A stretch of DNA of 32,000 bases from Candidatus Methanophagaceae archaeon (GCA_003194425.1 PQXB01000001.1:280444-312443); one strand, 5' to 3'; shown: positions 6,002-23,756, counted from the stretch's first letter. A program made the numbers and translations. The notes: generated by a model not told the origin, from the letters alone.

Positions 6002-6580
6002 GTGAAAGAAGAAAAGACGATTGAGAGCAGGCAGATTTACGGGGGGAGAAGACTTACCCTGCGGGTTGACACCGTCTCGTTGCCGAACGGCGAGACAAGA
6101 AGGCGAGAAATTGTCTCGCATCCGGGTGCGGCGGCTGTCGTTGCTTTGGTGGGCGGCGAGGGCGAGGACGAGGGCGAGGGCAAGGACGAGGGCGAGGACA
6201 AGAGCGAGGGAAGGGAGGAGGCGAAAGTGCTGTTAGTGGAGCAGTACCGAAAGGCGGTTGAGAGCAGCACTTTGGAGATTCCCGCAGGCACGCTTGAGGA
6301 GGGCGAGTCGGCGCAGGAGTGTGCTGAGCGGGAACTGGTTGAGGAGACGGGTTTTCGTGCAGGGAAAATGGAGAGGTTGGTGGAATTTTATCCGTCGCCG
6401 GGTTTTAGCAGCGAGCTAATCTCGATCTTCAAAGCCACAGGGCTGAAGCAGGTTTCTGGGGTGGAAGCAGAGCTGTCGGTAAAGTTTGAGGGGGTGAAGG
6501 AGTTGTTGGCGAAGGTGAGGAGGGGGGAGCTAAAAGACGGCAAGACAATTGTTGGGGTTCTGAGCGTTTTATGCGAGTGA
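6002..6580 (+). CDS. NUDIX hydrolase (ADP-ribose pyrophosphatase-like)
   Basis: Complete Nudix box GTLEEGESAQECAERELVEETGF (G-x5-E-x7-REUxEExGU). GTG start with gaggagga upstream. Contains a repeat insertion GGEGEDEGEGKDEGEDKSEGREE. Confidence 0.85.
   Translation: MKEEKTIESRQIYGGRRLTLRVDTVSLPNGETRRREIVSHPGAAAVVALVGGEGEDEGEGKDEGEDKSEGREEAKVLLVEQYRKAVESSTLEIPAGTLEEGESAQECAERELVEETGFRAGKMERLVEFYPSPGFSSELISIFKATGLKQVSGVEAELSVKFEGVKELLAKVRRGELKDGKTIVGVLSVLCE
6152..6220 (+). repeat. in-frame tandem repeat (about 18-nt unit, ggcgag-based) inside the NUDIX gene
   Basis: ggcgagggcgaggacgag / ggcgagggcaaggacgag / ggcgaggacaagagcgag, encoding GEGEDE GEGKDE GEDKSE. Confidence 0.85.
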
Positions 6581-7806
6581 GGGTCGTAGTGGTGGGCTGC
6601 GGGTTTGGTGGCGTGGAGGTCGCAGGCGAGCTGCGAAAACGGGCGGCGGCACGAGGAAAGAGGAAGGAACTTGAACTCGAGGTTTTGATGCTTGATCGTA
6701 GAGCGAGGTTTGAGTACTTGGCGGCACTTCCCGAGATTTTAAGCGGGAAAGTTACGGGGGGGGAGATCTCCGCCGACTTAAGCAGATTCGCAGCGAAAAT
6801 AGGTGCGGAATTCGTGAACGAGGAGGTTGTAAATATTAATTTTGCGGCGAAGACGGTAGAGACAAAGGGAAAAAGAGCAGAAGCAGGAGAAGGAGTAGGA
6901 GAGGGAGTAGGAGAGGGAGTAGGAGAAGGAGTGGGAAGACAAATTCCCTACGACTTTCTCGTGCTCTCCGTCGGTGCAGAGCAGACATTTTTCGGAATTC
7001 CGGGGGCAGAAGAGCGGTCGCACTCGGTTAACTCCTTGAAGGGCGCGGTAGAGACGAAGAACGCACTCGACCGTCTCAAACTCAAAGGCTCAAAGAAAGT
7101 CCGCGTGGTGGTCGTGGGTGCGGGGCTGACCGGGGTTGAGGTTGCAGGAGAGTTGGTCGATTATTTTGAGGGAGTGGCTGCGGAGATTTTTCTCGTAGAG
7201 GCGGCACCGAGAATTCTGCCTGCTTTTCCCTCCGCGAATCTCGCCAGGCGTGTAGCGAAATTCCTGTCTGGCAGGGGTGTTGAAATACTGACAGGAGAGG
7301 AGGCGCAAGAAGTAAGCGAGAAGGAAGTAACCTTTAGAGACGGGTCTAAACGCCACTACGACCTGCTCCTTTGGACGGCGGGGGTAAAGCCGAACCGCCT
7401 GCTTGAGCGTCTCGAACTTCAAAAGGAGAAGGGCTGGCTGAAGGTGGATTCTTGTCTTCGCGTGGCAGGTGGCAGGGTGAAAAATGTTTTTGCGGTTGGG
7501 GACGCGGTGTGGTTCGAGAGAGGTGGTCTTCGTTCAGGTCAGAATGTAGAAGAAGCAGAGAGGCAGGGCAGAGTCGCAGCCGCGAATATTGTAAGAGCAG
7601 TAAGAGGAAGAGGAAAAGGTGGAAGAAAAGGAGGAGGCGAAAAATTGAAGCCCTACAAGCCAAAGAACACGACGCAGAACCCGCGAGCGTTTATTTCGCT
7701 TGGCGGCGACAAAGCAGTGATTTTTTTTCGCGGGCTGGCATTCGGGGTCGTTGCCTACCGGTTGAAGAAGTTCGTTGAGCGGCGGTATTTGAGGAGATTT
7801 AAGTAG
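6571..7806 (+). CDS. FAD-dependent pyridine nucleotide-disulfide oxidoreductase (type II NADH dehydrogenase-like)
   Basis: Two Rossmann motifs, VVVVGCGFGGVEVAGEL and VVVVGAGLTGVEVAGEL, plus FAVGDAV near the C-terminus. The start overlaps the NUDIX stop by 10 nt. Contains a (GEGV)4 insertion. Confidence 0.8.
   Translation: MRVRVVVVGCGFGGVEVAGELRKRAAARGKRKELELEVLMLDRRARFEYLAALPEILSGKVTGGEISADLSRFAAKIGAEFVNEEVVNINFAAKTVETKGKRAEAGEGVGEGVGEGVGEGVGRQIPYDFLVLSVGAEQTFFGIPGAEERSHSVNSLKGAVETKNALDRLKLKGSKKVRVVVVGAGLTGVEVAGELVDYFEGVAAEIFLVEAAPRILPAFPSANLARRVAKFLSGRGVEILTGEEAQEVSEKEVTFRDGSKRHYDLLLWTAGVKPNRLLERLELQKEKGWLKVDSCLRVAGGRVKNVFAVGDAVWFERGGLRSGQNVEEAERQGRVAAANIVRAVRGRGKGGRKGGGEKLKPYKPKNTTQNPRAFISLGGDKAVIFFRGLAFGVVAYRLKKFVERRYLRRFK
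6886..6936 (+). repeat. in-frame 12-nt tandem repeat x4 encoding (GEGV)4G
   Basis: ggagaaggagta ggagagggagta ggagagggagta ggagaaggagtg gga. Confidence 0.95.
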
Positions 7807-7831: not shown

Positions 7832-9292
7832 ATGCCGTCTAATTCTAACCAAACGTTTGCGAGAGTGGTTGTAGTTGCTGCGGTCTGCGTCTTTAGCACG
7901 CAATTTGGCGTTACTGTGGTCGCGCCACTGCTCGGCGGGTGGGTGGCGGCGTCAGAAACACCGTTCCTCGTGGCAGCGTTGATTTTCTCGGCTTTTACAC
8001 TCGTTAGCGCACCGCTTGGAGTTCCGGGCGGCGTTCTTTCAGACAGGCTCGGGCGGAAACCGCTGGTCGTGGCAGGGCTGCTGCTTTACGCTGCGGCGTC
8101 GGTTCTCTTTCCGTTTTCGGACGACCCTTACGACTGGATTTTTGTGCGGGCGCTGCAGGGAGCGGGTGCGGGCTTGTTCTTCCCTGCGGTTAGTGCTCTG
8201 CTTGCGGAGGTTACGAGCCAGGACCACGAGGAACGAGGAGAGGAACGAGGAGGAGAGCAGGGAGAGGAGCGGGGGCGTGCGTTCAGCGTGTACAACATCG
8301 GGCTGGGCGTTGGTTTAGCAGCGGGACCGATTTCAGGCGGGCTTTTATTTGAGGCGTTCGGGATTTTCGTGCCGTTTCTGTTCTGCGTTGGGTTTGCGGT
8401 TCTGAGTGCGGTCTTGGTGGCGGTCTTGGTGCAGGAGCCGAGAGAGAGGTCAGAGCGGAGGAGGGGCGGCGGGTTGGCGTTGGGGTTGGCGTTAGGCGAG
8501 CGGGAGAGGCGGGCGTTGGGGACTGCTTGCGTGGTGATTTTTTTTGGAATCGGAGTTGCAGCGATTATGGAATCGCTGTTCTCTCCGTTTGCTACAAACG
8601 AACTGAGGCTCTCTACAGGCGTCGTCGGAGCGGTTCTTTCCGCGATGCTCGGTGTGTTTGCAACGCTCCAACTCGGCTTCAGCCGACTGATGCAGAAGGT
8701 TGGGGAGGTGGGGATTTCTGCTTTTGGGCTTTTTCTGTGTGCCGTTGGTCTGCTTATGCTTTACTTCGTAACCAGCGTTCCCAGCGTTCTGGGGCTGCTC
8801 TTGGTGAGTGCTGTTCTTGGTGCGGGTCTGGGTGCGGTCTCGCTCGGAACGCTGACGCTGGCGTCAGACGCGGTGGGAGCAGGCGGCGGAGTTCGCGGAG
8901 TAGGGGAGGAGAGAGGAAAAGGGGAGGAGAGAGGAGTAGGAGAGGAGAAAGGAGAAAGGGAGGAGAGAGGAAAAAGGGAGGAAAGAGGAGAAAGGGAGGA
9001 AAGAGGAGCAGGAGAGGAGAGAGGAGAAAGGGAGGAGAGAGGAGTAGGAGGAGGAAAAGTGATGGGAATTTACTACACTGCGTTTTACGCAGGTCTTGGT
9101 GGCGTTCCGCTTGTCTGCGGGGTTTTTTCAGATATTTTAGGTGCGAGGCGGCTGTTCTTGGGCTACGCGGTGCTGCTCTTTGTCTTAGCGTTTGCAGTGT
9201 GGCAGGGCAGAGTGTTACGGAGGGGCAAGACACCGGCACCGTTTAACACAGAGGTTGCAAATAAAACACAAGAAGAAAAATTATGTTTGTAG
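7832..9292 (+). CDS. MFS-type transporter
   Basis: About 12 hydrophobic segments. MFS loop motif GVLSDRLGRKPLVVAGLLL (G-x-L-x-D-R-x-G-R-K/R). Two EERG-type repeat insertions. Confidence 0.8.
   Translation: MPSNSNQTFARVVVVAAVCVFSTQFGVTVVAPLLGGWVAASETPFLVAALIFSAFTLVSAPLGVPGGVLSDRLGRKPLVVAGLLLYAAASVLFPFSDDPYDWIFVRALQGAGAGLFFPAVSALLAEVTSQDHEERGEERGGEQGEERGRAFSVYNIGLGVGLAAGPISGGLLFEAFGIFVPFLFCVGFAVLSAVLVAVLVQEPRERSERRRGGGLALGLALGERERRALGTACVVIFFGIGVAAIMESLFSPFATNELRLSTGVVGAVLSAMLGVFATLQLGFSRLMQKVGEVGISAFGLFLCAVGLLMLYFVTSVPSVLGLLLVSAVLGAGLGAVSLGTLTLASDAVGAGGGVRGVGEERGKGEERGVGEEKGEREERGKREERGEREERGAGEERGEREERGVGGGKVMGIYYTAFYAGLGGVPLVCGVFSDILGARRLFLGYAVLLFVLAFAVWQGRVLRRGKTPAPFNTEVANKTQEEKLCL
8225..8275 (+). 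repeat. in-frame imperfect repeat encoding HEERGEERGGEQGEERG
   Basis: gaggaacgagga units, read directly from the sequence. Confidence 0.8.
8897..9055 (+). repeat. in-frame 18-nt tandem repeat x8 encoding G-x-(G/R)-E-E-R
   Basis: GVGEER GKGEER GVGEEK GEREER GKREER GEREER GAGEER GEREER GVGGG. It is almost pure purine on the coding strand and generates spurious long ORFs in other frames and on the other strand. Confidence 0.95.
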
Positions 9293-10296
9293 GTGTAGAC
9301 CACGGGACCAGTGGAATCCGTTTTGCGGGGCTAAAGAAGGAAAGAAGAAAAAGAGGAGTAGGAGAAGCGGAGGTCTGTGAGTTGTCGCGGGAGAGGGCGG
9401 CGGAGCTGAGCGGCGAGGAGATTTTAAGCGAGGTGGAGGGGGAGCTGAAGATTGAAAGAGACGGGATAAATTTGCTTGCACTGACCTACTCGATGGGAGA
9501 CGGCTTCTCCAAGATAAAAAGCGTTGAGAAGGTGCCGAACAGGGGTGTGAGGAGCGGAGAAGGAGCAGGTGCAAGAGTCGGCGGCGGGACAAAGGTCTTT
9601 GACGCCCTGAAGGACGCAGGCGTTCCTGCGATTTTGATTCCGGGCATTCACGCTGGGAGCGAGAAGTTGGACCGCAGAATGAAGTTCTTCTCGCACGGGG
9701 CGAGTCCCGAGAAAGTCGGCGTTGCGTACCACCTTTACAAGAAAGGCTTTGAGAACTTCATTTTTTCAGACATTAGTTCTAACACCGTTACGGTGGCGGT
9801 CGCGAGCGGGGTGGTAGTGGGGGCGGTGGACGCTTGCTTGGGCGCTCCTGGGTTGTTTCAGGGTCCGCTTGACCTTCAGCTGTTGCGGGAGATTGAGAGT
9901 GGGCGGGTAAGCGCGAACGAAGCGTTCTCAAACGCCGGCGTCCTGCGTAAGAGGTGGGTGGGCGGAGTAAGGGGCGGAGTAAGGGGCGGAGTAAGGAAAG
10001 AGGGAGAGGAGGAGTTGGTGCTCGACGCTCTCGCTTTGTTTGCGGCGATGGAAATCTCGGCGATGCAGGTTCTTATGCGAGATTGCGGCGTGGGTGTAGA
10101 AGCGTCTCGTGTTTTCCTTACAGGCTCGGTGGGTGAAAAGGAGGAGGTGAAGCGGAGGATCGAGAGGCTCTTGGACAGCGGCGACGGCGAGACCGAGACT
10201 TTAACGAGGTGGAGTGCGGCAGTAGGGTGTGCGGAGATTGCAAAGGATGTTTTTTACGGCGAGAGGGAGATATTGGGGATCGAAGTGGAGTTGTGA
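9283..10296 (+). CDS. ASKHA-fold (actin/Hsp70/sugar-kinase-like) protein, resembling the archaeal UPF0285 / methanogenesis-marker-12 family
   Basis: The N-terminus MFVGVDHGTSGIRFAG looks like a phosphate-1 motif of ASKHA ATPases. The start overlaps the MFS stop by 10 nt. Contains a (GGVR)3 insertion. The family assignment is from memory and not verified. Confidence 0.5.
   Translation: MFVGVDHGTSGIRFAGLKKERRKRGVGEAEVCELSRERAAELSGEEILSEVEGELKIERDGINLLALTYSMGDGFSKIKSVEKVPNRGVRSGEGAGARVGGGTKVFDALKDAGVPAILIPGIHAGSEKLDRRMKFFSHGASPEKVGVAYHLYKKGFENFIFSDISSNTVTVAVASGVVVGAVDACLGAPGLFQGPLDLQLLREIESGRVSANEAFSNAGVLRKRWVGGVRGGVRGGVRKEGEEELVLDALALFAAMEISAMQVLMRDCGVGVEASRVFLTGSVGEKEEVKRRIERLLDSGDGETETLTRWSAAVGCAEIAKDVFYGEREILGIEVEL
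9961..9996 (+). repeat. in-frame 12-nt tandem repeat x3 encoding (GGVR)3
   Basis: ggcggagtaagg repeated three times exactly. Confidence 0.95.
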
Positions 10297-10333
10297 GTGT
10301 TCCTAAGATGGTTATTGTGGGGGAGAAGCCGTT

Positions 10334-10768
10334 GTGAAAAAAGAGGACGCAAATAAAGCTTTATGGGACTATTATAAAATATTGTCAGAACAATGCATAC
10401 ATGTAGGAACACAATTACATCGGAGTCTTTCTTTGAGTATCATGTGTATGATGTTATTTTTAACATTTACAGGGCTTTTGATAACTCAAAAGGTAAATTT
10501 TTCTTTTAATTTAGTTACTATAGGAATAGCTATTATCGACTTTGTAATTTTTTTGTTTTTCATTTCATCTGTTGGTTATTATCTTCACCTACGAATTCAT
10601 CTGCACAATATTTTTGGTACTGTTATGAAGATGGAAGAATTACAACGCGATATCCTTTTCGATAAAGTAAGTGAAGATGAATTAGAAATGAGATTTGAAG
10701 GGGTTTATCCTTTTTTAAATGCCTCTAGATATAAAACAAAATGGAAAATTTTGTTTAGGAGATGGTAA
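10334..10768 (+). CDS. small 2-TM membrane protein in an AT-rich islet
   Basis: GTG start. Hydrophobic segments are LSLSIMCMMLFLTFTGLLI and LVTIGIAIIDFVIFLFFISSVGYYL. Composition is much more AT-rich than the flanking genes. No family recognised. Confidence 0.5.
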   Translation: MKKEDANKALWDYYKILSEQCIHVGTQLHRSLSLSIMCMMLFLTFTGLLITQKVNFSFNLVTIGIAIIDFVIFLFFISSVGYYLHLRIHLHNIFGTVMKMEELQRDILFDKVSEDELEMRFEGVYPFLNASRYKTKWKILFRRW

Positions 10769-10842
10769 ATGGCGTAATGATACAAAAATTAGTAAATATT
10801 CTTTTATTTAAAAGAAAGGAAATATTAAAAAGGTGGTTGAAA

Positions 10843-11012
10843 ATGAAAGGCGCTAAAAAAGTTCATTTCCCTGTTCTCGTGGAGAGGGATGAAAATGGTT
10901 TTTTGTGGTTGAATGTCCTTTTCTTCAAGGGTGCTACATACAGGGCAAAACGCTGGACCAGGCGTTGAAAAACAGAACATGCATGAAGAGAAGAAAAAGA
11001 GCAAAAGAATAA
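10843..11012 (+). pseudogene. HicB/UPF0150-like small gene, frameshifted in a T6 run
   Basis: Frame 1 reads MKGAKKVHFPVLVERDENGF from ATG 10843, with ggtgg SD upstream. Frame 0 continues after T6 (10899-10904) as FVVECPFLQGCYIQGKTLDQALKN. Together these match the HicB N-terminal consensus (..E.DE.G...V.CP.L.GC.TQG.TL.EAL.N). The stop TAA at 10010-10012 of the local numbering, i.e. 11010-11012, overlaps ATG 11012 of the methyltransferase. Confidence 0.5.
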
Positions 11013-12448
11013 TGGAACTAAACCGATTGTACTACGGCGACAACTTAACGATTCTCCGAAGATACTTTCCTGACGAGTCGGTAGACCTGATTTATTTAGA
11101 CCCGCCGTTCAACTCCAACGCCTCTTACAACATCCTTTTTAAAGAGCCGGGGACAGGCGGCGAGCAGTCAGCCGCGCAAATTACCGCCTTCGACGACACT
11201 TGGCACTGGACAAGCGAGAGCGAGCAGACGTTCCAAGAGATTGTTAAGACCGCTCCTGCGACGGTTGTTAATTTAATGACCGCGTTGAAGGACGCTATTC
11301 ACAGAAACGACCTGCTGGCTTACCTCACGATGATGTGCATTCGGCTTCTTGAGTTGAAGCGAGTTTTGAAGCAGACTGGCTCTCTTTATTTGCACTGCGA
11401 CCCGACCGCGAGTCATTACTTGAAGATCCTTCTAGACGCTATCTTTGGAAAGGAGAATTTCAGGAATGAAATAATTTGGAGTTATCGAAGATGGCCAGCA
11501 AAGCAGGAAAATTTTCAGAGGATGCACGACACGATTTTGCGTTACTCAAAAACAGAGAAAGTCATTTGGAACCAACTTTTTGAACCACTCGCAAAATCGA
11601 CTTTAAAAGCGGATGGCGGAAATAAAATTCTTAATGTTTTTGATCCAGATACAGGAAAACGGATTCGTGGTAAAAAAACGGGCGAAAAATCTCTGGGCGC
11701 ACCGTTGCGAGATGTGTGGGAAATTTCAGTAATCGCACCAACTGCCAAAGAGCGTGTTGGCTACCGAACGCAGAAGCCCGAAGCCCTCCTTGAACGCATC
11801 ATAAAAGCGTCCTCAAACGAGGGCGACGTGGTCTTAGACCCGTTCTGCGGCTGCGGGACTGCAGTAGCAGTTGCCGAGAGACTCGGTCGCCGCTGGATTG
11901 GAATTGACATCACGCATCTCGCTATCAATTTAATAAAAGGGAGATTAAAAGACAATTTCCCAGAGATTGCGTTTTCGGTCGTCGGCGAGCCAGTAGATTT
12001 AGCAGGTGCCGAAGCGTTAGCAAGACAGAACCGCTACCAATTTCAGTGGTGGGCACTCTCGCTAGTCGACGCCAGACCGTTCGGCGATAAAAAGAAAGGT
12101 GCTGACACTGGAATCGACGGCTTCTACTACTTCAACGACGGCGGGACGACAAAGAAGGCGGTCGTCTCTGTTAAGAGCGGGAAAGTAGGCGTAAGCCAAA
12201 TCCGAGAGCTAAACGCGGTCGTAGAACGCGAAAAGGCGGAAATGGGCTTCTTCTTGACTCTAAAAACTCCAACAGCAGCAATGAAAGAAGCAGCCACTGG
12301 TGAAGGCTTTTATTTAGATTCCTTCGGGAATAAATATCCGAAGCTGCAACTCTTTACAATTGAAGAACTTCTTAACAATAAAAGTCCAGACACGCCGCAA
12401 AAAGTCGGTCTCTTTGAATCTTACCGAGCAAAAAAATCAAAAGGATAA
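11012..12448 (+). CDS. beta-class N6-adenine/N4-cytosine DNA methyltransferase fused to a C-terminal Mrr-like (PD-(D/E)xK) nuclease domain
   Basis: Motif IV DLIYLDPPFNS precedes motif I VLDPFCGCGTAVAVAERLGRRWIGIDI, which is the beta permutation. The C-terminal ~140 aa read GADTGIDGFYYF...AVVSVKSGKVGVSQIRELNAVV...MGFFLTL, resembling the restriction-endonuclease Mrr_cat core. ATG 11012 (MELNRLYYGDNL) is preferred over ATG 10913, which overlaps the HicB-like frames. Confidence 0.85.
   Translation: MELNRLYYGDNLTILRRYFPDESVDLIYLDPPFNSNASYNILFKEPGTGGEQSAAQITAFDDTWHWTSESEQTFQEIVKTAPATVVNLMTALKDAIHRNDLLAYLTMMCIRLLELKRVLKQTGSLYLHCDPTASHYLKILLDAIFGKENFRNEIIWSYRRWPAKQENFQRMHDTILRYSKTEKVIWNQLFEPLAKSTLKADGGNKILNVFDPDTGKRIRGKKTGEKSLGAPLRDVWEISVIAPTAKERVGYRTQKPEALLERIIKASSNEGDVVLDPFCGCGTAVAVAERLGRRWIGIDITHLAINLIKGRLKDNFPEIAFSVVGEPVDLAGAEALARQNRYQFQWWALSLVDARPFGDKKKGADTGIDGFYYFNDGGTTKKAVVSVKSGKVGVSQIRELNAVVEREKAEMGFFLTLKTPTAAMKEAATGEGFYLDSFGNKYPKLQLFTIEELLNNKSPDTPQKVGLFESYRAKKSKG
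12023..12427 (+). repeat. direct repeat copy A (nuclease-domain coding block)
   Basis: Colinear with 13200-13604 at a constant offset of 1177 nt. Long near-identical stretches (e.g. agacagaaccgctaccaatttcagtggtgggcactctcgctagtcgacgc) are interspersed with more diverged patches. Confidence 0.9.
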
Positions 12449-12476
12449 AGGCAGAATAAGTTAATGAGGAAAAAGG

Positions 12477-13184
12477 ATGTTTGAAAATCTGCCGGGGATA
12501 ATTCCCTCATTGGATGTTGAGATTGGAGAGGCGAGAAGGGTAGTAGAAGAGATCAAGGATTTGAGGCGGGAGATTTGCGGATTGAAAATAGGCTCGCTCC
12601 TTGCTTGGAAATATGGGTTGCAGAGGGTGGTGGAGGAGATGAAAAAAACATCTGATTTCAAATTCCCGATAATTTTTGACGCACAGAAGGCAGGAACAGA
12701 CATTCCAGAAATGACACGGAAACAGGTGAAAGTCGTTGCTGACGCTGGCGTAGACGCGTTTATCGCGGCTCCGCAAGGCGCTGGCTCGGCGACGCTTGCT
12801 GCTTTTGTGGACGCCTGCCTTGAACACGAAATAATTCCAATCGTGGTCGTAGAGATGACGCACCAGGATTTTGACGCTTTTCTGTCGGGCGACGCTTCGG
12901 AGAAGATTTTGGAAGACGCGTTGGAGCGGGGTGTTGAGGACTTTGTGGCTCCTGCCAACAAGCCCGAGCGTTTGAAGTTTTATAAAAATTTTGCTGAAGA
13001 GAAGAAGAAAGGGATAAAAATATTCTCGCCTGGGGTGGGTCCTCAGGGCGGCGGTCCCGATTCGGCTGTTGCGGCGGGTGCGGATTTTGTGATCGTTGGC
13101 AGAGCGATTTACGAGGCGGAAAATCCGCGAAGAGAAGTGATTCGGATTTACGAGAAGATTAAGAAGGTTAAGAAGGCGGTGTAA
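12477..13184 (+). CDS. orotidine-5'-phosphate decarboxylase family protein (PyrF-like, atypical catalytic loop)
   Basis: Archaeal ODCase-like blocks are present: VVVEMTH, VAPANKPERL, FSPGVGPQGG and FVIVGRAIYEAENP. The expected D-x-K-x-x-D motif reads D-A-Q-K-A-G-T-D (IIFDAQKAGTDIPEM). Confidence 0.65.
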   Translation: MFENLPGIIPSLDVEIGEARRVVEEIKDLRREICGLKIGSLLAWKYGLQRVVEEMKKTSDFKFPIIFDAQKAGTDIPEMTRKQVKVVADAGVDAFIAAPQGAGSATLAAFVDACLEHEIIPIVVVEMTHQDFDAFLSGDASEKILEDALERGVEDFVAPANKPERLKFYKNFAEEKKKGIKIFSPGVGPQGGGPDSAVAAGADFVIVGRAIYEAENPRREVIRIYEKIKKVKKAV

Positions 13185-13187
13185 AAA

Positions 13188-13643
13188 ATGGAACTAAACA
13201 GACAGAACCGCTACCAATTTCAGTGGTGGGCACTCTCGCTAGTCGACGCACGACCGTTCGGCGATAAAAAGAAAGGTGCTGACACTGGAATCGACGGCTA
13301 TTTCTTCTTTAACGACGCTGGCGAGACAAAGAAGGCAGTGGTGCAGGTTAAGAGCGGTAAAGTCGGAGTCAGCCAAATCCGCGAACTAATCCAAGTCGTA
13401 GCGAGAGAGAAAGCGAAAATGGGCTTCTTCTTGACTCTAAAAACTCCAACAGCAGCAATGACCGAAGCAGCCACAGGCGAGGGATTTTATTCTGATTCCT
13501 TCGGTAATAAATATCCAAAGCTCCAAATCTTTACGATTGAAGAACTTCTTAACAATAAAAGTCCAGACACGCCGCAAAAAGTCGGTCTCTTTGAATCTTT
13601 CCGAAATACCAAAAGGAGAAAGAATAAAAGAAACAAAAAATGA
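13188..13643 (+). CDS. stand-alone Mrr-like nuclease-domain protein, a deletion derivative of a methyltransferase-nuclease paralogue
   Basis: It starts with MELN, and the 13 nt aatggaactaaac are identical to 11011-11023. It then joins directly to RQNRYQFQWWALSLVDARPFGDKKKGADTGIDG...VVQVKSGKVGVSQIREL, homologous to the C-terminus of the 11012-12448 product. Its stop overlaps ATG 13640 (ATGA). Confidence 0.7.
   Translation: MELNRQNRYQFQWWALSLVDARPFGDKKKGADTGIDGYFFFNDAGETKKAVVQVKSGKVGVSQIRELIQVVAREKAKMGFFLTLKTPTAAMTEAATGEGFYSDSFGNKYPKLQIFTIEELLNNKSPDTPQKVGLFESFRNTKRRKNKRNKK
13200..13604 (+). repeat. direct repeat copy B
   Basis: Homologous to 12023-12427; see copy A. Confidence 0.9.
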
Positions 13644-14797
13644 AAAAGCCGATATTTGACGATGTTGGGAGTTACCCACTGCCCGAGGGAACGACGAAGG
13701 AGTGGCTGAAAGAAGCCTTCTCCAGTGCTGCTACCAATTCCCAACTCTACGAAATAATAAGAGAAGCGATGTGGCAGAAGATAAACGCGGGCGTTGAAGT
13801 CCCGAACTACCCGCAGTTTCAAAATATGATTTCGCAGTTCAGCGAGCCGATTTTGGACGACAGCCGCACAGAAGCACCGCTGCTCGTAAAAGAAGAAGAG
13901 GCGAGGCTGGTCGAGCTGGACGCTTTAGAGGGGCTGGCTGCGGAGTACAGGGAAGAGCGAGGGGGAGGAAGAGGAAGCGGAGAGGGAGGAAGAGGGAGCG
14001 GAGAGGGAGGAAGAGGGAGCGGAGAGGGAGGTGGGGAAGGGGAGAAATTGAAAATCAGAATTTGCGTTACCGGCCCTGTAGAGTTGTACTACAGCCTCTT
14101 TCCACCGCCGGTTTACACAGACGTCCTCTCAAACATTGCGAAATCAGTGGGCAGGTTCGTAAAGCACGCGGTGGAAGGAGCGAGGAAAGGAGCGAAGAAG
14201 AGGAATTACGAGGTGAGTTGCGTCTCAATTGACGAGCCGAGCATTGGGTTAGACCCTCGCATTGAGGTAAAGGAAGACGAGGAGAGCGTAGTCACCGCAC
14301 TCGAACTCGCCACCGAGTACGCGTCTCGAACCGCGGGCGTTGACACGCAAATTCACCTGCACTCGCCGATTTTTTACGAGACCGTTTGTCAGGTGGAGGG
14401 GATAAAAGTGATTGGGCTGGAGTCTGCGGCTAACCCGTCCCTCCTTGCTCTAATTGACAAAAAAGAACTCGAGCAGCACGACAAGTTCCTCCGCATCGGC
14501 GTCGCGAGAACTGACATCTTCAGAATGGCTGCCGAGTACGACGAGAGGCACAACACGAACTCCTTCGGGAAAAGCGGGAAGGAGAGAAGGATTTTGGAGG
14601 CAGTGGTTAACGAGTACAACAGCCCTGCCCTCGTAAAAAAGCGGTTGGAGAAAGCGTCTACGATTTTCGGCGAGCGGGTGCTGTACGCTGGTCCTGACTG
14701 CGGACTTGGGGCGTTTCCCAGTCAGGAGTTGGCGTCTTTGGTCTTGAAGAACACTTCTCTTGGGCTGCGGGGGCTGCGGGAGCGGGATTTTCGGTGA
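13640..14797 (+). CDS. UROD/MetE-like (cobalamin-independent methionine synthase family) protein
   Basis: N-terminal DDVGSYPLPEG and C-terminal VLYAGPDCGLG resemble MetE-type catalytic-domain motifs. Contains a 21-nt x3 repeat insertion. The family call is from motif memory only. Confidence 0.55.
   Translation: MKKPIFDDVGSYPLPEGTTKEWLKEAFSSAATNSQLYEIIREAMWQKINAGVEVPNYPQFQNMISQFSEPILDDSRTEAPLLVKEEEARLVELDALEGLAAEYREERGGGRGSGEGGRGSGEGGRGSGEGGGEGEKLKIRICVTGPVELYYSLFPPPVYTDVLSNIAKSVGRFVKHAVEGARKGAKKRNYEVSCVSIDEPSIGLDPRIEVKEDEESVVTALELATEYASRTAGVDTQIHLHSPIFYETVCQVEGIKVIGLESAANPSLLALIDKKELEQHDKFLRIGVARTDIFRMAAEYDERHNTNSFGKSGKERRILEAVVNEYNSPALVKKRLEKASTIFGERVLYAGPDCGLGAFPSQELASLVLKNTSLGLRGLRERDFR
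13964..14044 (+). repeat. in-frame 21-nt tandem repeat x3 (+partial) encoding (GGRGSGE)3GGGEGE
   Basis: ggaggaagaggRagcggagag repeated three times. Confidence 0.95.
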
Positions 14798-19468: not shown

Positions 19469-20956
19469 ATGGACAGGCGGATTGTTTGCGGCAGCGTCGG
19501 GAGCATCTTAAAATATCTCGGTATTTTAATGCTCGTCCCGCTTGGAGTGGCGGTTTGGTACGGGGAGGAGACGCTGCCGTTTCTGATTTCACTCGCTGCA
19601 ACCACCTCGTTTGGAGTGGTTTTAGAGCGGCTCGGGGCGACGGAGGGGGTGATAAAAAGGAGAGAGGGTTTTGCGATTGTCGCGTTGGGCTGGCTCGCAG
19701 TTGCAGCCTTCGGCGCCCTGCCCTTCCTCTTTTCGTCTGAGTTGGGGGCAGGGGCAGGGGCAGGAGCAGGGGCAGGGGCAGGAGTAGGGGAAGAGTTAGG
19801 AGTGAGGGCAGTGGACGCTTTCTTTGAGTCAATGTCTGGCTTTACGACTACAGGAGCGACGGTGCTTCGGAATTTAGAGCAGGTAGACCGCAGCGTTCTT
19901 CTGTGGCGTAGTTTTACGCAGTGGATTGGCGGAATGGGTGTCATTCTGCTTTTTATTGCGATTCTTCCGACTTTTGGCGTCGCAGGCAGTCAGCTCTTTG
20001 ACCGCGAGTTCCCGGGTCCGATGGCAGAGCGGATTCGACCGCGGGTTCAAATGACCGCCCGAATGCTGTGGTCGATTTACCTGATTTTGACAGTCGCCGA
20101 GATTCTTGCTCTCCTCTTTGCAGCGAAGATGCCGTTGTACGACGCTCTCTGCACCGCGTTCTGCACGATGCCTACAGGGGGGTTCTCACCGCACCCGGAA
20201 AGCGTCGGCGGCTACCTCAACCCTGCCGCGGAGTTAATTGTCGTGGTCTTTATGTTTCTCGCGGGGATGAATTTCGTCCTGCACTACGCTTTGCTAAGGA
20301 ATCCGCGACGCGTTCTCGAGAACAAGGAATTTCAGGTCTACTGCCTGCTGCTCGCGACTGCGGTCCTCTTAATTGCCGCGGATTTGGCTCTGCACGAGTT
20401 TGAGATTCAGGAGGCATTTCGCTACGGCGGGTTTCAGGCGGTCTCTTTTATGACGACTACAGGGTTCGTGACTGCGGATTTTGAGGCTTGGGGAGGCTTG
20501 TCCAAGACCGTTCTCTTCGCTCTGATGTTTGTCGGCGGGTGCGGCGGCTCAACAGGCGGAAGCATAAAAGTCGTCCGAGTTTTTGTTCTGCTAAAAATCG
20601 TGAAGCAGCGGATTCGACACATTCTCTACCCGCACGCTATTTTTGTTTTGAAGACAGGGGACAAGCCGGTTTCGGAGGAGATTCTGCAGGGAATTAGCGC
20701 CTTTTTTATCTGCTACATTTTTATCTTCGCACTCGGCTCGGTTGCGATGGCTGCGGTGGGCTTGGACTTGGTTAGTGCAGCGTCTTCGGTAGCCGCGACG
20801 CTTGGAAATGTCGGACCGGGGTTTGGTCTCGTCTCCGTCGACTACGCTGCGGTTCCCGTGCTGGGAAAGCTCGTCCTGTCTTTTTGTATGTGGGCGGGCA
20901 GGCTGGAGCTCTTTACGGTCTTGGTTCTGCTGACGCCTGCGTTTTGGCGGGGCTGA
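19469..20956 (+). CDS. trkH: TrkH/KtrB-family potassium uptake protein
   Basis: Multi-TM protein with TrkH-type pore-loop motifs SGFTTTGATV, MPTGGFS, TTTGF and GGCGGSTGGSIKV. Contains a (GA)6GV insertion. Confidence 0.9.
   Translation: MDRRIVCGSVGSILKYLGILMLVPLGVAVWYGEETLPFLISLAATTSFGVVLERLGATEGVIKRREGFAIVALGWLAVAAFGALPFLFSSELGAGAGAGAGAGAGVGEELGVRAVDAFFESMSGFTTTGATVLRNLEQVDRSVLLWRSFTQWIGGMGVILLFIAILPTFGVAGSQLFDREFPGPMAERIRPRVQMTARMLWSIYLILTVAEILALLFAAKMPLYDALCTAFCTMPTGGFSPHPESVGGYLNPAAELIVVVFMFLAGMNFVLHYALLRNPRRVLENKEFQVYCLLLATAVLLIAADLALHEFEIQEAFRYGGFQAVSFMTTTGFVTADFEAWGGLSKTVLFALMFVGGCGGSTGGSIKVVRVFVLLKIVKQRIRHILYPHAIFVLKTGDKPVSEEILQGISAFFICYIFIFALGSVAMAAVGLDLVSAASSVAATLGNVGPGFGLVSVDYAAVPVLGKLVLSFCMWAGRLELFTVLVLLTPAFWRG
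19745..19801 (+). repeat. in-frame 6-nt repeat encoding GAGAGAGAGAGAGVGEELG
   Basis: ggggca / ggagca units, seen directly in the sequence. Confidence 0.9.
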
Positions 20957-23466: not shown

Positions 23467-23756
23467 GGGGAGAGAGGAAGGGCAGCTGCCGGCCAACCTT
23501 TAAAAAAGCGTTTTTCTTGAAGGGCAGGCTGAGGAAAGTCCCCCCACCGAAAAAGCACGAACGTTGAGAGGGCGTAAGGCGAGAGTCTTGGCTCTGGGAT
23601 AGAAACGAACCGTGCCACACAAAAGCGATGATTCCGTGAGGAAGAGGTCGTGTGGTTCTGCGGATGGAACGACCAACCTCGTGGGTGCAAGCCTCAAGAG
23701 AAGGTGCAAAGATGAATGCTGCCGAAACAGAAGGGGGCTTACTCTCCTCACTCCCC
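23467..23756 (+). ncRNA. rnpB: RNase P RNA (archaeal type A)
   Basis: CR-I GAGGAAAGTCC at about 23533 and CR-V ACAGAAGGGGGCTTAC at about 23727. A P1 helix forms between GGGGAGAGAGGA (23467-23478) and TCCTCACTCCCC (23745-23756) with one A/A mismatch. No plausible protein frame; length about 290 nt. Confidence 0.85.

Follow-up and report, generated by a model that had tools for sequence, protein, structure and literature searches.

The locus described here lies within a 32,000-nucleotide stretch of DNA (the window) from an ANME-1 (Methanophagales) methane-oxidising archaeon. It is best read as a strain-variable pair of tandem paralogues, each a DNA methyltransferase fused to an Mrr-like domain, in which the downstream copy has decayed by in-frame deletion into a short gene, B, and a PyrF-like gene lies between the two; we put the probability of this reading at about three in four. 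The ancestral copy 2 would have been full length here, as its orthologue P0005 is in contig L007 (all comparison contigs come from related Methanophagales strains). The deletion removed the methylase and recognition modules and left the start codons joined to the nuclease-like domain, so that at this locus the strain would now encode type-1 methylation alone. B is in all likelihood a remnant of recent origin, probably functionless or dispensable. The locus as a whole represents ordinary strain-level turnover of methylase genes, not a new defence system. It illustrates cleanly, in nature, how uncultured ANME-1 strains differ in their methylase repertoires and, presumably, in their methylomes. 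Three processes can be seen: paralogues in tandem whose recognition segments differ, recombination in blocks, and the loss of one specificity through a frame-preserving deletion.

Gene content and domain architecture

Table 1. Features of the methylase-Mrr locus, in positions of the window
Feature	Position	Strand	Remarks
Methanogenesis marker 12 gene	9283-10296	+	TIGR03281, 347.8 bits
Gene A (copy 1)	11012-12448	+	478 aa from ATG at 11012
Central variable region of A (type 1; presumed target-recognition domain)	11473-11754	+	Delimited by blastn homology break
Direct repeat, copy 1	12023-12427	+	Mrr-like domain of A, motif D...SVK
PyrF-like gene	12477-13184	+	Between both methylase copies
Gene B	13188-13643	+	151 aa
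Deletion junction in B	13199-13200	+	AAAC|AGACAG; one codon later, after AGA, equally possible
Direct repeat, copy 2	13200-13604	+	Within B
MetE-like gene	13640-14797	+	PRK06052 (methionine-synthase-like), 403 bits

Open reading frames were found where the first-pass annotation had placed genes A and B (Table 1). The methanogenesis marker 12 gene provides a conserved upstream anchor, being syntenic in L001 and L005 at ~98% DNA identity. Just upstream of the locus, a HicB-like fragment lies within a strain-specific insert. As had been proposed, B is translationally embedded among its neighbours: its ATG lies 3 nt past the TAA of the PyrF-like gene, and its TGA overlaps the ATG of the MetE-like gene as ATGA. 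The reading frame of B is intact, with a Shine-Dalgarno-like GGCGGTG upstream. The final 4 nt of the full-length methylase gene in L005 and L007 overlap the MetE-like start in the same way.

Gene A encodes a beta-class N6/N4 DNA methyltransferase with a type-1 recognition segment and, C-terminally, an Mrr-like domain. Residues 24-308 match Pfam PF01555 (N6_N4_Mtase) with E = 2.7e-48 and 165.3 bits (cut-off 26.7). In beta-class enzymes, which are circularly permuted, motif IV (DPPF/Y) lies towards the N-terminus and motif I (FxGxG) towards the C-terminus, with the variable recognition region separating them. A has this order, motif IV (DPPF, residues 30-33) preceding motif I (DPFCGCGT, residues ~276-283), and family-wide conservation is low in residues 155-245 between them. 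Sequence matches of A in the PDB include M.RsrI, M.MboIIA and CcrM, and two relatives, P0001 and P0002, share 90-92% identity with it. By itself, A is not notable.

The C-terminal domain matches Mrr_cat (PF04471; cut-off 21 bits) in both proteins, with E = 2.8e-8 and 34.3 bits in A and E = 3.7e-10 and 40.4 bits in B. It also matches NA-iREase1 (cut-off 27 bits), with E = 1.5e-10 and 41.4 bits in A and E = 3.2e-11 and 43.6 bits in B. The Pfam profile search returned no N6_N4_Mtase match in B, in keeping with its earlier description as an in-frame derivative without the methylase, and B also lacks any recognition module. The AlphaFold2 model of B (mean pLDDT 83, pTM 0.77, core pLDDT >90) has the element order H-E-E-H-E-H, and its Foldseek matches include MspJI (E = 7e-4), AspBHI, EcoO109I, BamHI, NucS and AF1548, at TM-scores of only 0.4-0.5, with the catalytic domains of MspJI and AspBHI best. 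The Mrr-like domain of A and B is accordingly modelled as a restriction-endonuclease-like alpha/beta fold, and the initial domain assignments hold both in the Pfam profiles, above cut-off for A and B, and in the predicted PD-(D/E)xK fold.

DNA cleavage by this domain is uncertain. Five of its residues are invariant in the family (D365, D369, K388, R406 and E407 in A numbering), and D32, D36 and K55 of B occupy the invariant columns equivalent to D365, D369 and K388. The (E/Q) position is Q in 64/121 full-length relatives, as in the QVK of B, and S in 57/121 (47%), as in the SVK of A. The first-pass annotation had concluded from this difference that the free domain is the better preserved, an argument that fails because both residues are so frequent among full-length relatives. 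At the helix-1 position, where such nucleases are expected to have a conserved Glu, 118/121 family members have Gln, and the best-matching Pfam model, NA-iREase1, is named for an "inactive" REase. The helix-1 Gln, the frequent Ser and the inactive model together leave cleavage activity in doubt.

Gene B and its full-length orthologue

A and B share an ungapped 405-bp direct repeat with 356/405 identical positions (87.9%, inside the 85-90% estimated at first) and, as claimed, a constant offset of 1177 nt and a common 13-nt start, AATGGAACTAAAC, at 11011-11023 and 13187-13199. Similarity at the start reaches 17/19 nt when the Arg codon is counted (CGA vs AGA). By sequence comparison, the repeat is leftover homology between two paralogues. 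B consists of 4-5 start codons fused in frame to the Mrr-like domain (D...QVK), with a copy-2-specific tail, RNTKRRKNKRNKK, that is common to P0005. The supposed origin of B from A did not withstand comparison with other strains: at the DNA level, the identity of B is 96.7% with the 3' part of P0005 and 86.9% with A, which indicates that B is the orthologue of the second full-length paralogue and not derived from A. The earlier figure of 999 nt, or 333 codons, is correct as arithmetic against A only; relative to the full-length orthologue P0005 (495 aa), the true loss is 344 codons (1,032 nt).

From 13203 onward, L007 matches the window at 98.9% identity, and its gene order is the 3' end of copy 1, the PyrF-like gene, full-length P0005, the MetE-like gene, a CPBP protease gene and EpsI. 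P0005, itself a methylase-Mrr fusion, occupies the position of B: it begins 2 nt past the PyrF-like stop, and its own stop overlaps the MetE-like start. The full-length copy 2 is seen complete in this one contig, and four shorter contigs (L002, L003, L006 and L008) give only a full-length-type start, running from copy 1 through the PyrF-like gene into a methylase-type copy-2 start (MDLNTLYYGDN...). Another copy-2-type gene, P0007, has independently lost 32 codons, also in frame, from within its Mrr-like domain. B would be kept in frame because ribosomes reading it bring translation to the overlapping MetE-like start, and the deletions tolerated upstream of the MetE-like gene would be those that preserve the frame; we infer this coupling from two deletions, those in B and P0007.

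The sequence across the junction in the window is AACTAAACAGACAGAACC, and the junction was found in no other public contig. Direct comparison of the sequences revealed no microhomology between its two sides, either in A or in copy 2 as other strains have it. The first 13 nt of B (GAACTAAAC) and its AGA codon match A and not the copy-2 start of other strains, GATTTAAACACA, so either copy 1 must have converted part of the parent allele, or events were more complicated. We consider it very unlikely that the junction was created in assembly or binning, or that the consensus fixed a rare population variant, and that the real genome has two full-length copies. Such an error would be in keeping with a repeat-rich locus at whose repeats the assemblies of relatives break exactly (L002-L004, L006 and L008 end inside methylase copies), and with the confinement of the junction to a single contig. 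However, the result is exactly in frame, and since the junction sides share no sequence, a graph assembler would have had no k-mer path from which to invent it. The window, moreover, crosses the locus unbroken, as would be expected only if the copy-2 N-terminal repeat (~470 nt, ~96% identical) is truly absent.

That B is instead maintained as a functional free-standing nuclease or regulatory subunit strikes us as unlikely. It could pair with the Mrr-like domain of A, to which it is 86% identical, and so either complete or inhibit a dimer capable of cleavage; the two genes could then work as a split methylase/nuclease system. A role of this kind would suit an intact reading frame that is translationally coupled on both sides, the retention of the three invariant residues, a canonical D...QxK motif with the Q of the MspJI-family PD-QxK site, and the confidently predicted fold of the core. 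The dN/dS of B against P0005 is 0.24, which might suggest constraint, but this value derives from only ~11 substitutions and equals the one obtained for two full-length genes (0.23); it is therefore uninformative about the time since the deletion. The free form also appears strain-specific, since L007 has the full-length gene and four contigs have a full-length-type start, and B has no recognition module. A database search found no exact or near-identical free-standing protein on record and no recurrent free-standing B-like family; most of the other short homologues are truncated genes or fragments at contig ends.

Recombination, recognition segments and the PyrF-like gene

The 49 mismatches within the repeat fall in clusters. 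Together, the four longest stretches free of mismatches (64, 50, 48 and 45 nt) span 207 nt, a value matched by 0/20,000 random placements of the mismatches, and the same test on third codon positions alone gave p = 1.5e-4. This patchy identity reflects repeated recombination or gene conversion among paralogues and alleles. The mosaic structure and gene conversion proposed at the outset are supported both by this clustering and by haplotype blocks shuffled among strain contigs, the N- and C-terminal haplotypes being re-assorted among gene A (W_A), L001, L005, L006, L007 and L008.

The central segment of A stands apart from these blocks. Matches of type-2 genes to A in blastn stop at 11472 and restart at 11755, and in 60-nt windows the segment is 41-55% identical to type-2 alleles vs 98-100% to other type-1 alleles. 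Its GC content (41.8%, with GC3 of 34%) is below that of its flanks. The central recognition segment of P0005, the copy-2 paralogue, differs from that of A. Because the copies have near-identical ends but different central segments, type-1 and type-2 copies presumably methylate different motifs.

Two related copies with patchy differences, and alleles that vary in the recognition segment, might also bring to mind a device programmed for diversification or switching, for example a diversity-generating retroelement or a specificity system that works by inversion or shuffling. We give this almost no credence: the mismatches fall at all four bases (A 17, C 14, G 12 and T 6 in the A copy) and are not adenine-specific, the repeats are direct, without inversion, the neighbouring genes scanned include no reverse transcriptase or recombinase, and B has no recognition segment to donate.

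The PyrF-like gene encodes a member of the OMPdecase superfamily (Pfam OMPdecase, E = 7.6e-25, 88.5 bits). We rejected its identification as orotidine-5'-phosphate decarboxylase proper, since both PyrF models fall below their equivalog cut-offs (PRK13813, 128 bits with 208 needed; TIGR01740, 82 with 92.3 needed) and its subfamily has an invariant DxQKxxxD, not DxKxxD, the canonical motif of OMP decarboxylases. The gene differs at 0-2/708 nt in six related contigs. L005, from the same species, has a single full-length methylase gene between the marker 12 and MetE-like genes, no PyrF-like gene, and flanks that are ~98% identical. This state makes the earlier suggestion of a pop-out by recombination between the repeats plausible, and it could be an assembly collapse, not a true allele.

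The tandem pair may have arisen through a Campbell-type single crossover, in which a small circular element carrying a homologous methylase gene and the PyrF-like gene entered a resident single gene; homologous recombination via the conserved methylase ends would then have carried the cassette from strain to strain. This origin is compatible with the main explanation, and we hold it as a tentative, rather unlikely possibility. The single-gene state of L005 fits it, as does the contrast between the near-invariant PyrF-like gene and flanks that differ from the window by 1-2% and methylase copies that differ by up to ~15%; the GC of the type-1 recognition segment looks foreign, PyrF-like homologues elsewhere never adjoin such a methylase, and the methylase-Mrr family is common on plasmids and viruses. 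Yet the analysis found neither a circular form nor an integrase or replication gene, the L005 state may be the collapse noted above, and a tandem duplication followed by an insertion fits the data equally well. An integrative element that duplicated the 3' end of its target was rejected: no integrase lies between or beside the repeats, copy 2 is full length in L007, and the full-length-type starts in L002, L003, L006 and L008 also counter this reading.

In L001, a different cargo, an AliA_AliB gene, follows the methylase. Together with the near-invariance of the PyrF-like gene, it fits a reading in which the tandem methylases act as portable homology arms for the capture and spread of cargo among ANME-1 strains, with B, additionally or alternatively, a trans-acting partner of the Mrr-like domain of A. 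We regard this as unlikely; if true, the locus would be more than simple decay, namely a cassette hotspot driven by recombination and containing a split methylase/nuclease module.

Comparison with known systems

Under the preferred reading of a decayed second copy at a strain-variable locus, the components are familiar ones, and the initial description of an unusual restriction-modification or defence arrangement was overstated. Protein matches to A comprise at least 8,000 candidates, all with E < 1e-5, and the best 120 of these are all fusions (120/120), at 51-92% identity and across phyla. The methylase-Mrr fusion is found in bacteria, archaea, plasmids and viral contigs (232 viral-contig loci) and, judging from these matches, is a very common single-gene architecture and a stand-alone methylase. 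Two plasmid homologues, 40% identical to A, are annotated as DNA methyltransferases, and on these two plasmids no neighbour annotated as a restriction endonuclease lies beside the fusion gene. Single-chain proteins with N6_N4_Mtase and Mrr_cat/NA-iREase1 domains share the domain order of A and are similar in length (~480-570 aa), while B differs as a shortened derivative of the architecture. They are annotated as "site-specific DNA-methyltransferase" or "restriction endonuclease", examples being P0004 (from a Methanophagales MAG) and WP_044552088.1 (from Mesorhizobium japonicum plasmid pMLa). A literature search found no paper characterising the activity of this family, and its biochemistry is read here from sequence. 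The locus points to a very large, apparently uncharacterised methylase-Mrr family in which the nuclease-like domain is strongly conserved.

Type IIG/IIC enzymes such as MmeI and BpuSI have an N-terminal nuclease and a gamma-class methylase. They resemble A in that one chain unites methylase, recognition region and nuclease-fold domain, but the order in A is reversed (methylase, recognition, nuclease-like) and its methylase is beta-class, an architecture that excludes A from this group. For BpuSI, the N-terminal nuclease and gamma-class methylase are described in PMC3185434. The MspJI-type nucleases, for which a PD-QxK site has been described (PMC12707154), are matched by the D...QVK of B and by the Mrr_cat hits of both proteins, but differ in that TM-scores against B are low and that the A/B family has Gln in helix 1 and frequently Ser at the (E/Q) position.

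Another counterpart is domain movement, in which methyltransferase specificity changes by moving or replacing target-recognition domains, as in Helicobacter pylori (PMC3077401, PMC3983042, PMC3575425). The ANME-1 locus likewise combines conserved flanks with alternative central segments at one site and blocks re-assorted among strains, and it qualifies as a case of recognition-domain replacement between methylase alleles. It differs in its archaeal host, in its beta-class genes, each fused to a nuclease-like domain, and in the tandem placement of both alleles on either side of a cargo gene; a change of specificity would follow from the divergent segments. In ANME-1 itself, structural variants at variable hotspots are reported in adenine-methyltransferase, hsdRSM and hicAB genes, those in the first and last being typical, according to the accessible portion of the source (PMC13385816). 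Clade and gene classes agree with what we find, namely methylase indel variants and a nearby HicB-like fragment; that portion reports variant gene classes and not the A/B locus or a tandem arrangement, and the present analysis fills in, for one locus, the reported association of variable hotspots in ANME-1 with methylase and toxin-antitoxin genes.

Tandem methylase paralogues and the remnant gene

Gene A (a beta-class N6/N4 DNA methyltransferase fused to a C-terminal Mrr-like domain), the PyrF-like gene, and gene B (an Mrr-like domain alone) occupy the coordinates assigned to them by the first-pass annotation. Nucleotides 12023-12427 form an ungapped alignment with 13200-13604, offset throughout by 1177 nt, with 356 of 405 positions identical (87.9%; repeat D1). 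The common 5' start of A and B, AATGGAACTAAAC, matches at 17 of 19 nt when the following Arg codon is included (repeat D6). B begins 3 nt past the stop codon of the PyrF-like gene, and the B stop (TGA) overlaps the ATG of the next gene, again as first described. Pfam identifies N6_N4_Mtase (E = 2.7e-48), Mrr_cat, and NA-iREase1 in A and only the latter two in B. PADLOC yields only generic Type II/III methylase models for A and one weak match for B, and PHROGs labels A as "DNA methyltransferase" and returns no match for B. Exact-protein look-ups retrieved no record for the A and B proteins as defined here, nor for the entry P0020.

Features of the window and arrangements on related contigs
Sequence	Feature	Position	Strand	Remark
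Window	ORF A	11012-12448	+	
Window	PyrF-like ORF	12477-13184	+	
Window	ORF B	13188-13643	+	
Window	144-aa ORF	10334-10768		Hydrophobic by eye; no family match
Window	HicB-antitoxin-like fragment	10762-11011		Frameshift needed at T-run near 10896-10901; stop overlaps ATG of A
Window	Purine-rich tandem repeats (GGAGAR-type, periods 6-54)	6155-6221, 6885-6936, 8897-9059, 9960-9996, 13951-14045, 19745-19808		Inside ORFs
Window	Archaeal RNase P RNA	23470-23753	+	Rfam RF00373, 189 bits
L007	3' end of upstream copy, PyrF-like, P0005 (495-aa methylase-Mrr), MetE-like, CPBP protease, EpsI			
L002, L003, L006, L008	Copy 1, PyrF-like, methylase-type second-copy start			Start reads MDLNTLYYGDN...
L005	One full-length gene between marker 12 and MetE-like, without PyrF-like			NCBI Methanophagales MAG, 140-kb contig
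L001	Type-1 methylase gene after marker 12, then AliA_AliB-family gene and 349-aa ORF	9482-11405		

The locus is flanked upstream by methanogenesis marker 12 and downstream by a PRK06052 methionine-synthase-like (MetE-like) gene. The closest named relatives of A belong to Methanophagales (ANME-1), and PXF51119.1 of a "Candidatus Methanophagaceae archaeon" has the same sequence as the PyrF-like protein. Species-representative genomes scanned with the PyrF-like protein gave no match, indicating that the species is absent from that set. Strains were compared using public same-species contigs, whose flanks are ~98 to 99% identical.

These contigs show that the locus holds tandem methylase paralogues, a copy 1 upstream and a copy 2 downstream of the PyrF-like gene. 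Contig L007, which matches the window at 98.9% identity beginning at position 13203, carries copy 2 at full length (P0005). At the DNA level, B is 96.7% identical to the 3' part of P0005 versus 86.9% to A, and B and P0005 have the distinctive tail RNTKRRKNKRNKK in common. Sequence comparison thus identifies B as the local orthologue of the second tandem paralogue, a deletion remnant of copy 2 lacking 344 codons. The first-pass annotation had derived B from A by loss of 999 nt, or 333 codons; this arithmetic is correct relative to A, but the real loss, measured against P0005, is 344 codons. With copy 2 complete in L007 and starting as a full-length gene would in four other contigs, a classical integrative element leaving a displaced 3' gene fragment was rejected.

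At the junction of B, the window reads AACTAAAC followed directly by AGACAGAACC, in contrast to full-length copy 2, which opens with ATGGATTTAAACACATTGTAC... past the PyrF-like stop. The first 13 nt of B and the AGA codon resemble copy 1, unlike the copy-2 start of other strains. No microhomology was found at the junction among the A-type and copy-2-type sequences compared. A CATTG repeat of copy-2-type genes was dismissed as the junction source, since it would yield MDLNTLQNRY and the observed start is MELNRQNRY.

The PyrF-like gene and its surroundings

The PyrF-like gene falls within the OMPdecase superfamily, yet below the PyrF equivalog cut-offs. Its subfamily is small (163 database matches), with named members from Methanophagales, Methanofastidiosia, Woesearchaeota, Nanoarchaeota, and candidate division WOR-3. 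DxQKxxxD is invariant in this subfamily (alignment A1) at the site where the canonical motif is DxKxxD, and the protein is possibly something other than a standard OMP decarboxylase. A JGI metagenome scan with the PyrF-like alignment recovered 80 loci (best identity, 68%), none of which contains a methylase-Mrr fusion gene or synteny with marker 12 or the MetE-like gene; one of them, L033, has only a weak 56-residue match to the methylase region of A. The neighbor also differs on contig L089, which has a 75%-identical homologue from another lineage. With no such fusion gene adjoining these homologues, the pairing of PyrF-like gene and methylase is lineage-specific and uninformative on function. 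On L089 (2-658), the PyrF-like gene is preceded by a 218-aa ORF with an N-terminus that is TIR-domain-like by eye.

Among six related contigs, the PyrF-like gene shows 0 to 2 differences in 708 nt; compared with the window, the flanks of the same contigs differ by ~1 to 2% and the methylase copies by up to ~15%. This near-invariance fits the recent spread of a cassette, with strong constraint as the alternative. Recombination between the 405-bp repeats could excise the PyrF-like gene, and the single-gene state of L005 represents either a preinsertion state, a post-pop-out state, or a collapsed assembly. Different genes follow the methylase on L001, so the downstream position seems to accept varying cargo. 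The AliA_AliB-family gene and the 349-aa ORF of L001 are absent from the window. L001 derives from the same sample as L007, and its methylase has a third, more divergent type of C-terminal haplotype.

In L001, L005, L006, and L008, marker 12 and the methylase gene are separated by a 67-bp spacer; upstream of A, a 709-bp segment of 32% GC (10290-10998) takes its place, and the marker 12 C-terminus of the window is unlike that of other strains. Purine-rich repeats in the MFS transporter, marker 12, and the MetE-like protein encode G/E/R low-complexity inserts, as read from the translations; other arrays lie in or near a NUDIX gene and further ORFs. Gene lengths differ slightly in related contigs, suggesting possible strain-to-strain variation in the inserts.

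The nuclease-like domain

B is predicted to fold alone (pLDDT, 83; core, >90), and its best structural matches are the PD-(D/E)xK nucleases MspJI, AspBHI, EcoO109I, BamHI, NucS, and AF1548, at modest TM-scores of 0.4 to 0.5. In the 121 full-length family members compared, residues D365, D369, K388, R406, and E407 show no or almost no variation. The QVK of B had been proposed to be better preserved than the SVK of A, but the variable position is Q in 64 and S in 57 of these members and is therefore uninformative about preservation. Gln occupies the helix-1 position in 118 of the 121, a position that we take to be the expected place of the conserved glutamate in PD-(D/E)xK nucleases. The Pfam model that best matches the domain is named for an inactive REase, and the domain would either cleave DNA or only bind it. 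In the upstream copy on L007 (3-671), 10 inserted codons form a Gly/Lys-rich stretch in the loop directly ahead of the GADTGIDG motif (Mrr-like domain).

Recognition types and the methylase-Mrr family

The 49 mismatches between the repeats of A and B are clustered, leaving identical runs of 64, 50, 48, and 45 nt as the longest. The sum of these four runs was never attained in 20,000 random placements, and third codon positions alone give p = 1.5e-4, indicating that the mosaic is real and reflects more than protein constraint. A diversity-generating retroelement or phase variation was rejected from the spectrum of mismatches and the orientation of the repeats and because no reverse transcriptase or recombinase was found among the neighboring genes scanned.

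Type 1 genes (A, P0001, and P0002) and type 2 genes (P0003, P0004, P0005, and P0007) differ in a central, family-variable segment, which lies between motifs IV-VIII and X-I in the beta-class enzyme and is presumed to be the target-recognition domain. Identity here, in 60-nt windows, is 41 to 55% between types and 98 to 100% within a type. The N- and C-terminal haplotype blocks are reassorted among contigs: in some windows, the N-terminal part of A matches type-2 genes perfectly (100%) but other type-1 genes at only 65 to 78%, and L008 has a type-2 center in the upstream position. The type-1 center of A is poorer in GC (41.8%; GC3, 34%) than the N-terminal part of the gene (GC3, 64%). Blocks recombine between copies and alleles, and the recognition segment exists in two types; together with the clustered mismatches, this bears out the mosaic and the gene conversion initially suggested.

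The two types presumably methylate different motifs, and the strain of the window would have lost type-2 activity. The remnant B would be recent and is probably dispensable. The deletion may be in frame because translation of the B ORF feeds the overlapping MetE-like start. Two in-frame deletions fit this coupling, that of B and one of 32 codons in P0007. The latter, a copy-2-type methylase-Mrr gene on a 1,549-bp JGI contig, has its deletion inside the Mrr-like domain, a second and independent frame-preserving deletion in the copy-2-type lineage. An intact frame, a Shine-Dalgarno-like sequence, and a canonical D...QxK motif argue against a purely "dead" B. A dN/dS of 0.24 was also counted against it but reflects only ~11 changes, and post-deletion substitutions are too few for dN/dS to inform on B function.

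A database search with A returned at least 8,000 candidates, all with E < 1e-5; the best 120 are all methylase-Mrr fusions (51 to 92% identity), which span archaea and many bacterial phyla. Full-length homologues are also plasmid-borne, and in two plasmid regions inspected, the fusion is annotated as a DNA methyltransferase with no neighbor annotated as a restriction endonuclease. The fusion is further present at 232 viral-contig loci. It is thus common, contrary to the initial view of an unusual restriction-modification or defense arrangement. Most short B homologues are truncated genes or fragments at contig ends, and they form no free-standing family. Our literature search found no paper that characterizes the fusion, and the locus serves mainly as a worked example and a pointer to a very large, uncharacterized family.

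Structural variation in adenine-methyltransferase and hicAB genes at ANME-1 hotspots has already been described in the literature, in general terms (PMC13385816). Recognition-domain swapping is likewise already known from bacteria, and the pattern at this ANME-1 locus is that of the recognition-domain movement described in Helicobacter methylases (PMC3983042, PMC3077401).
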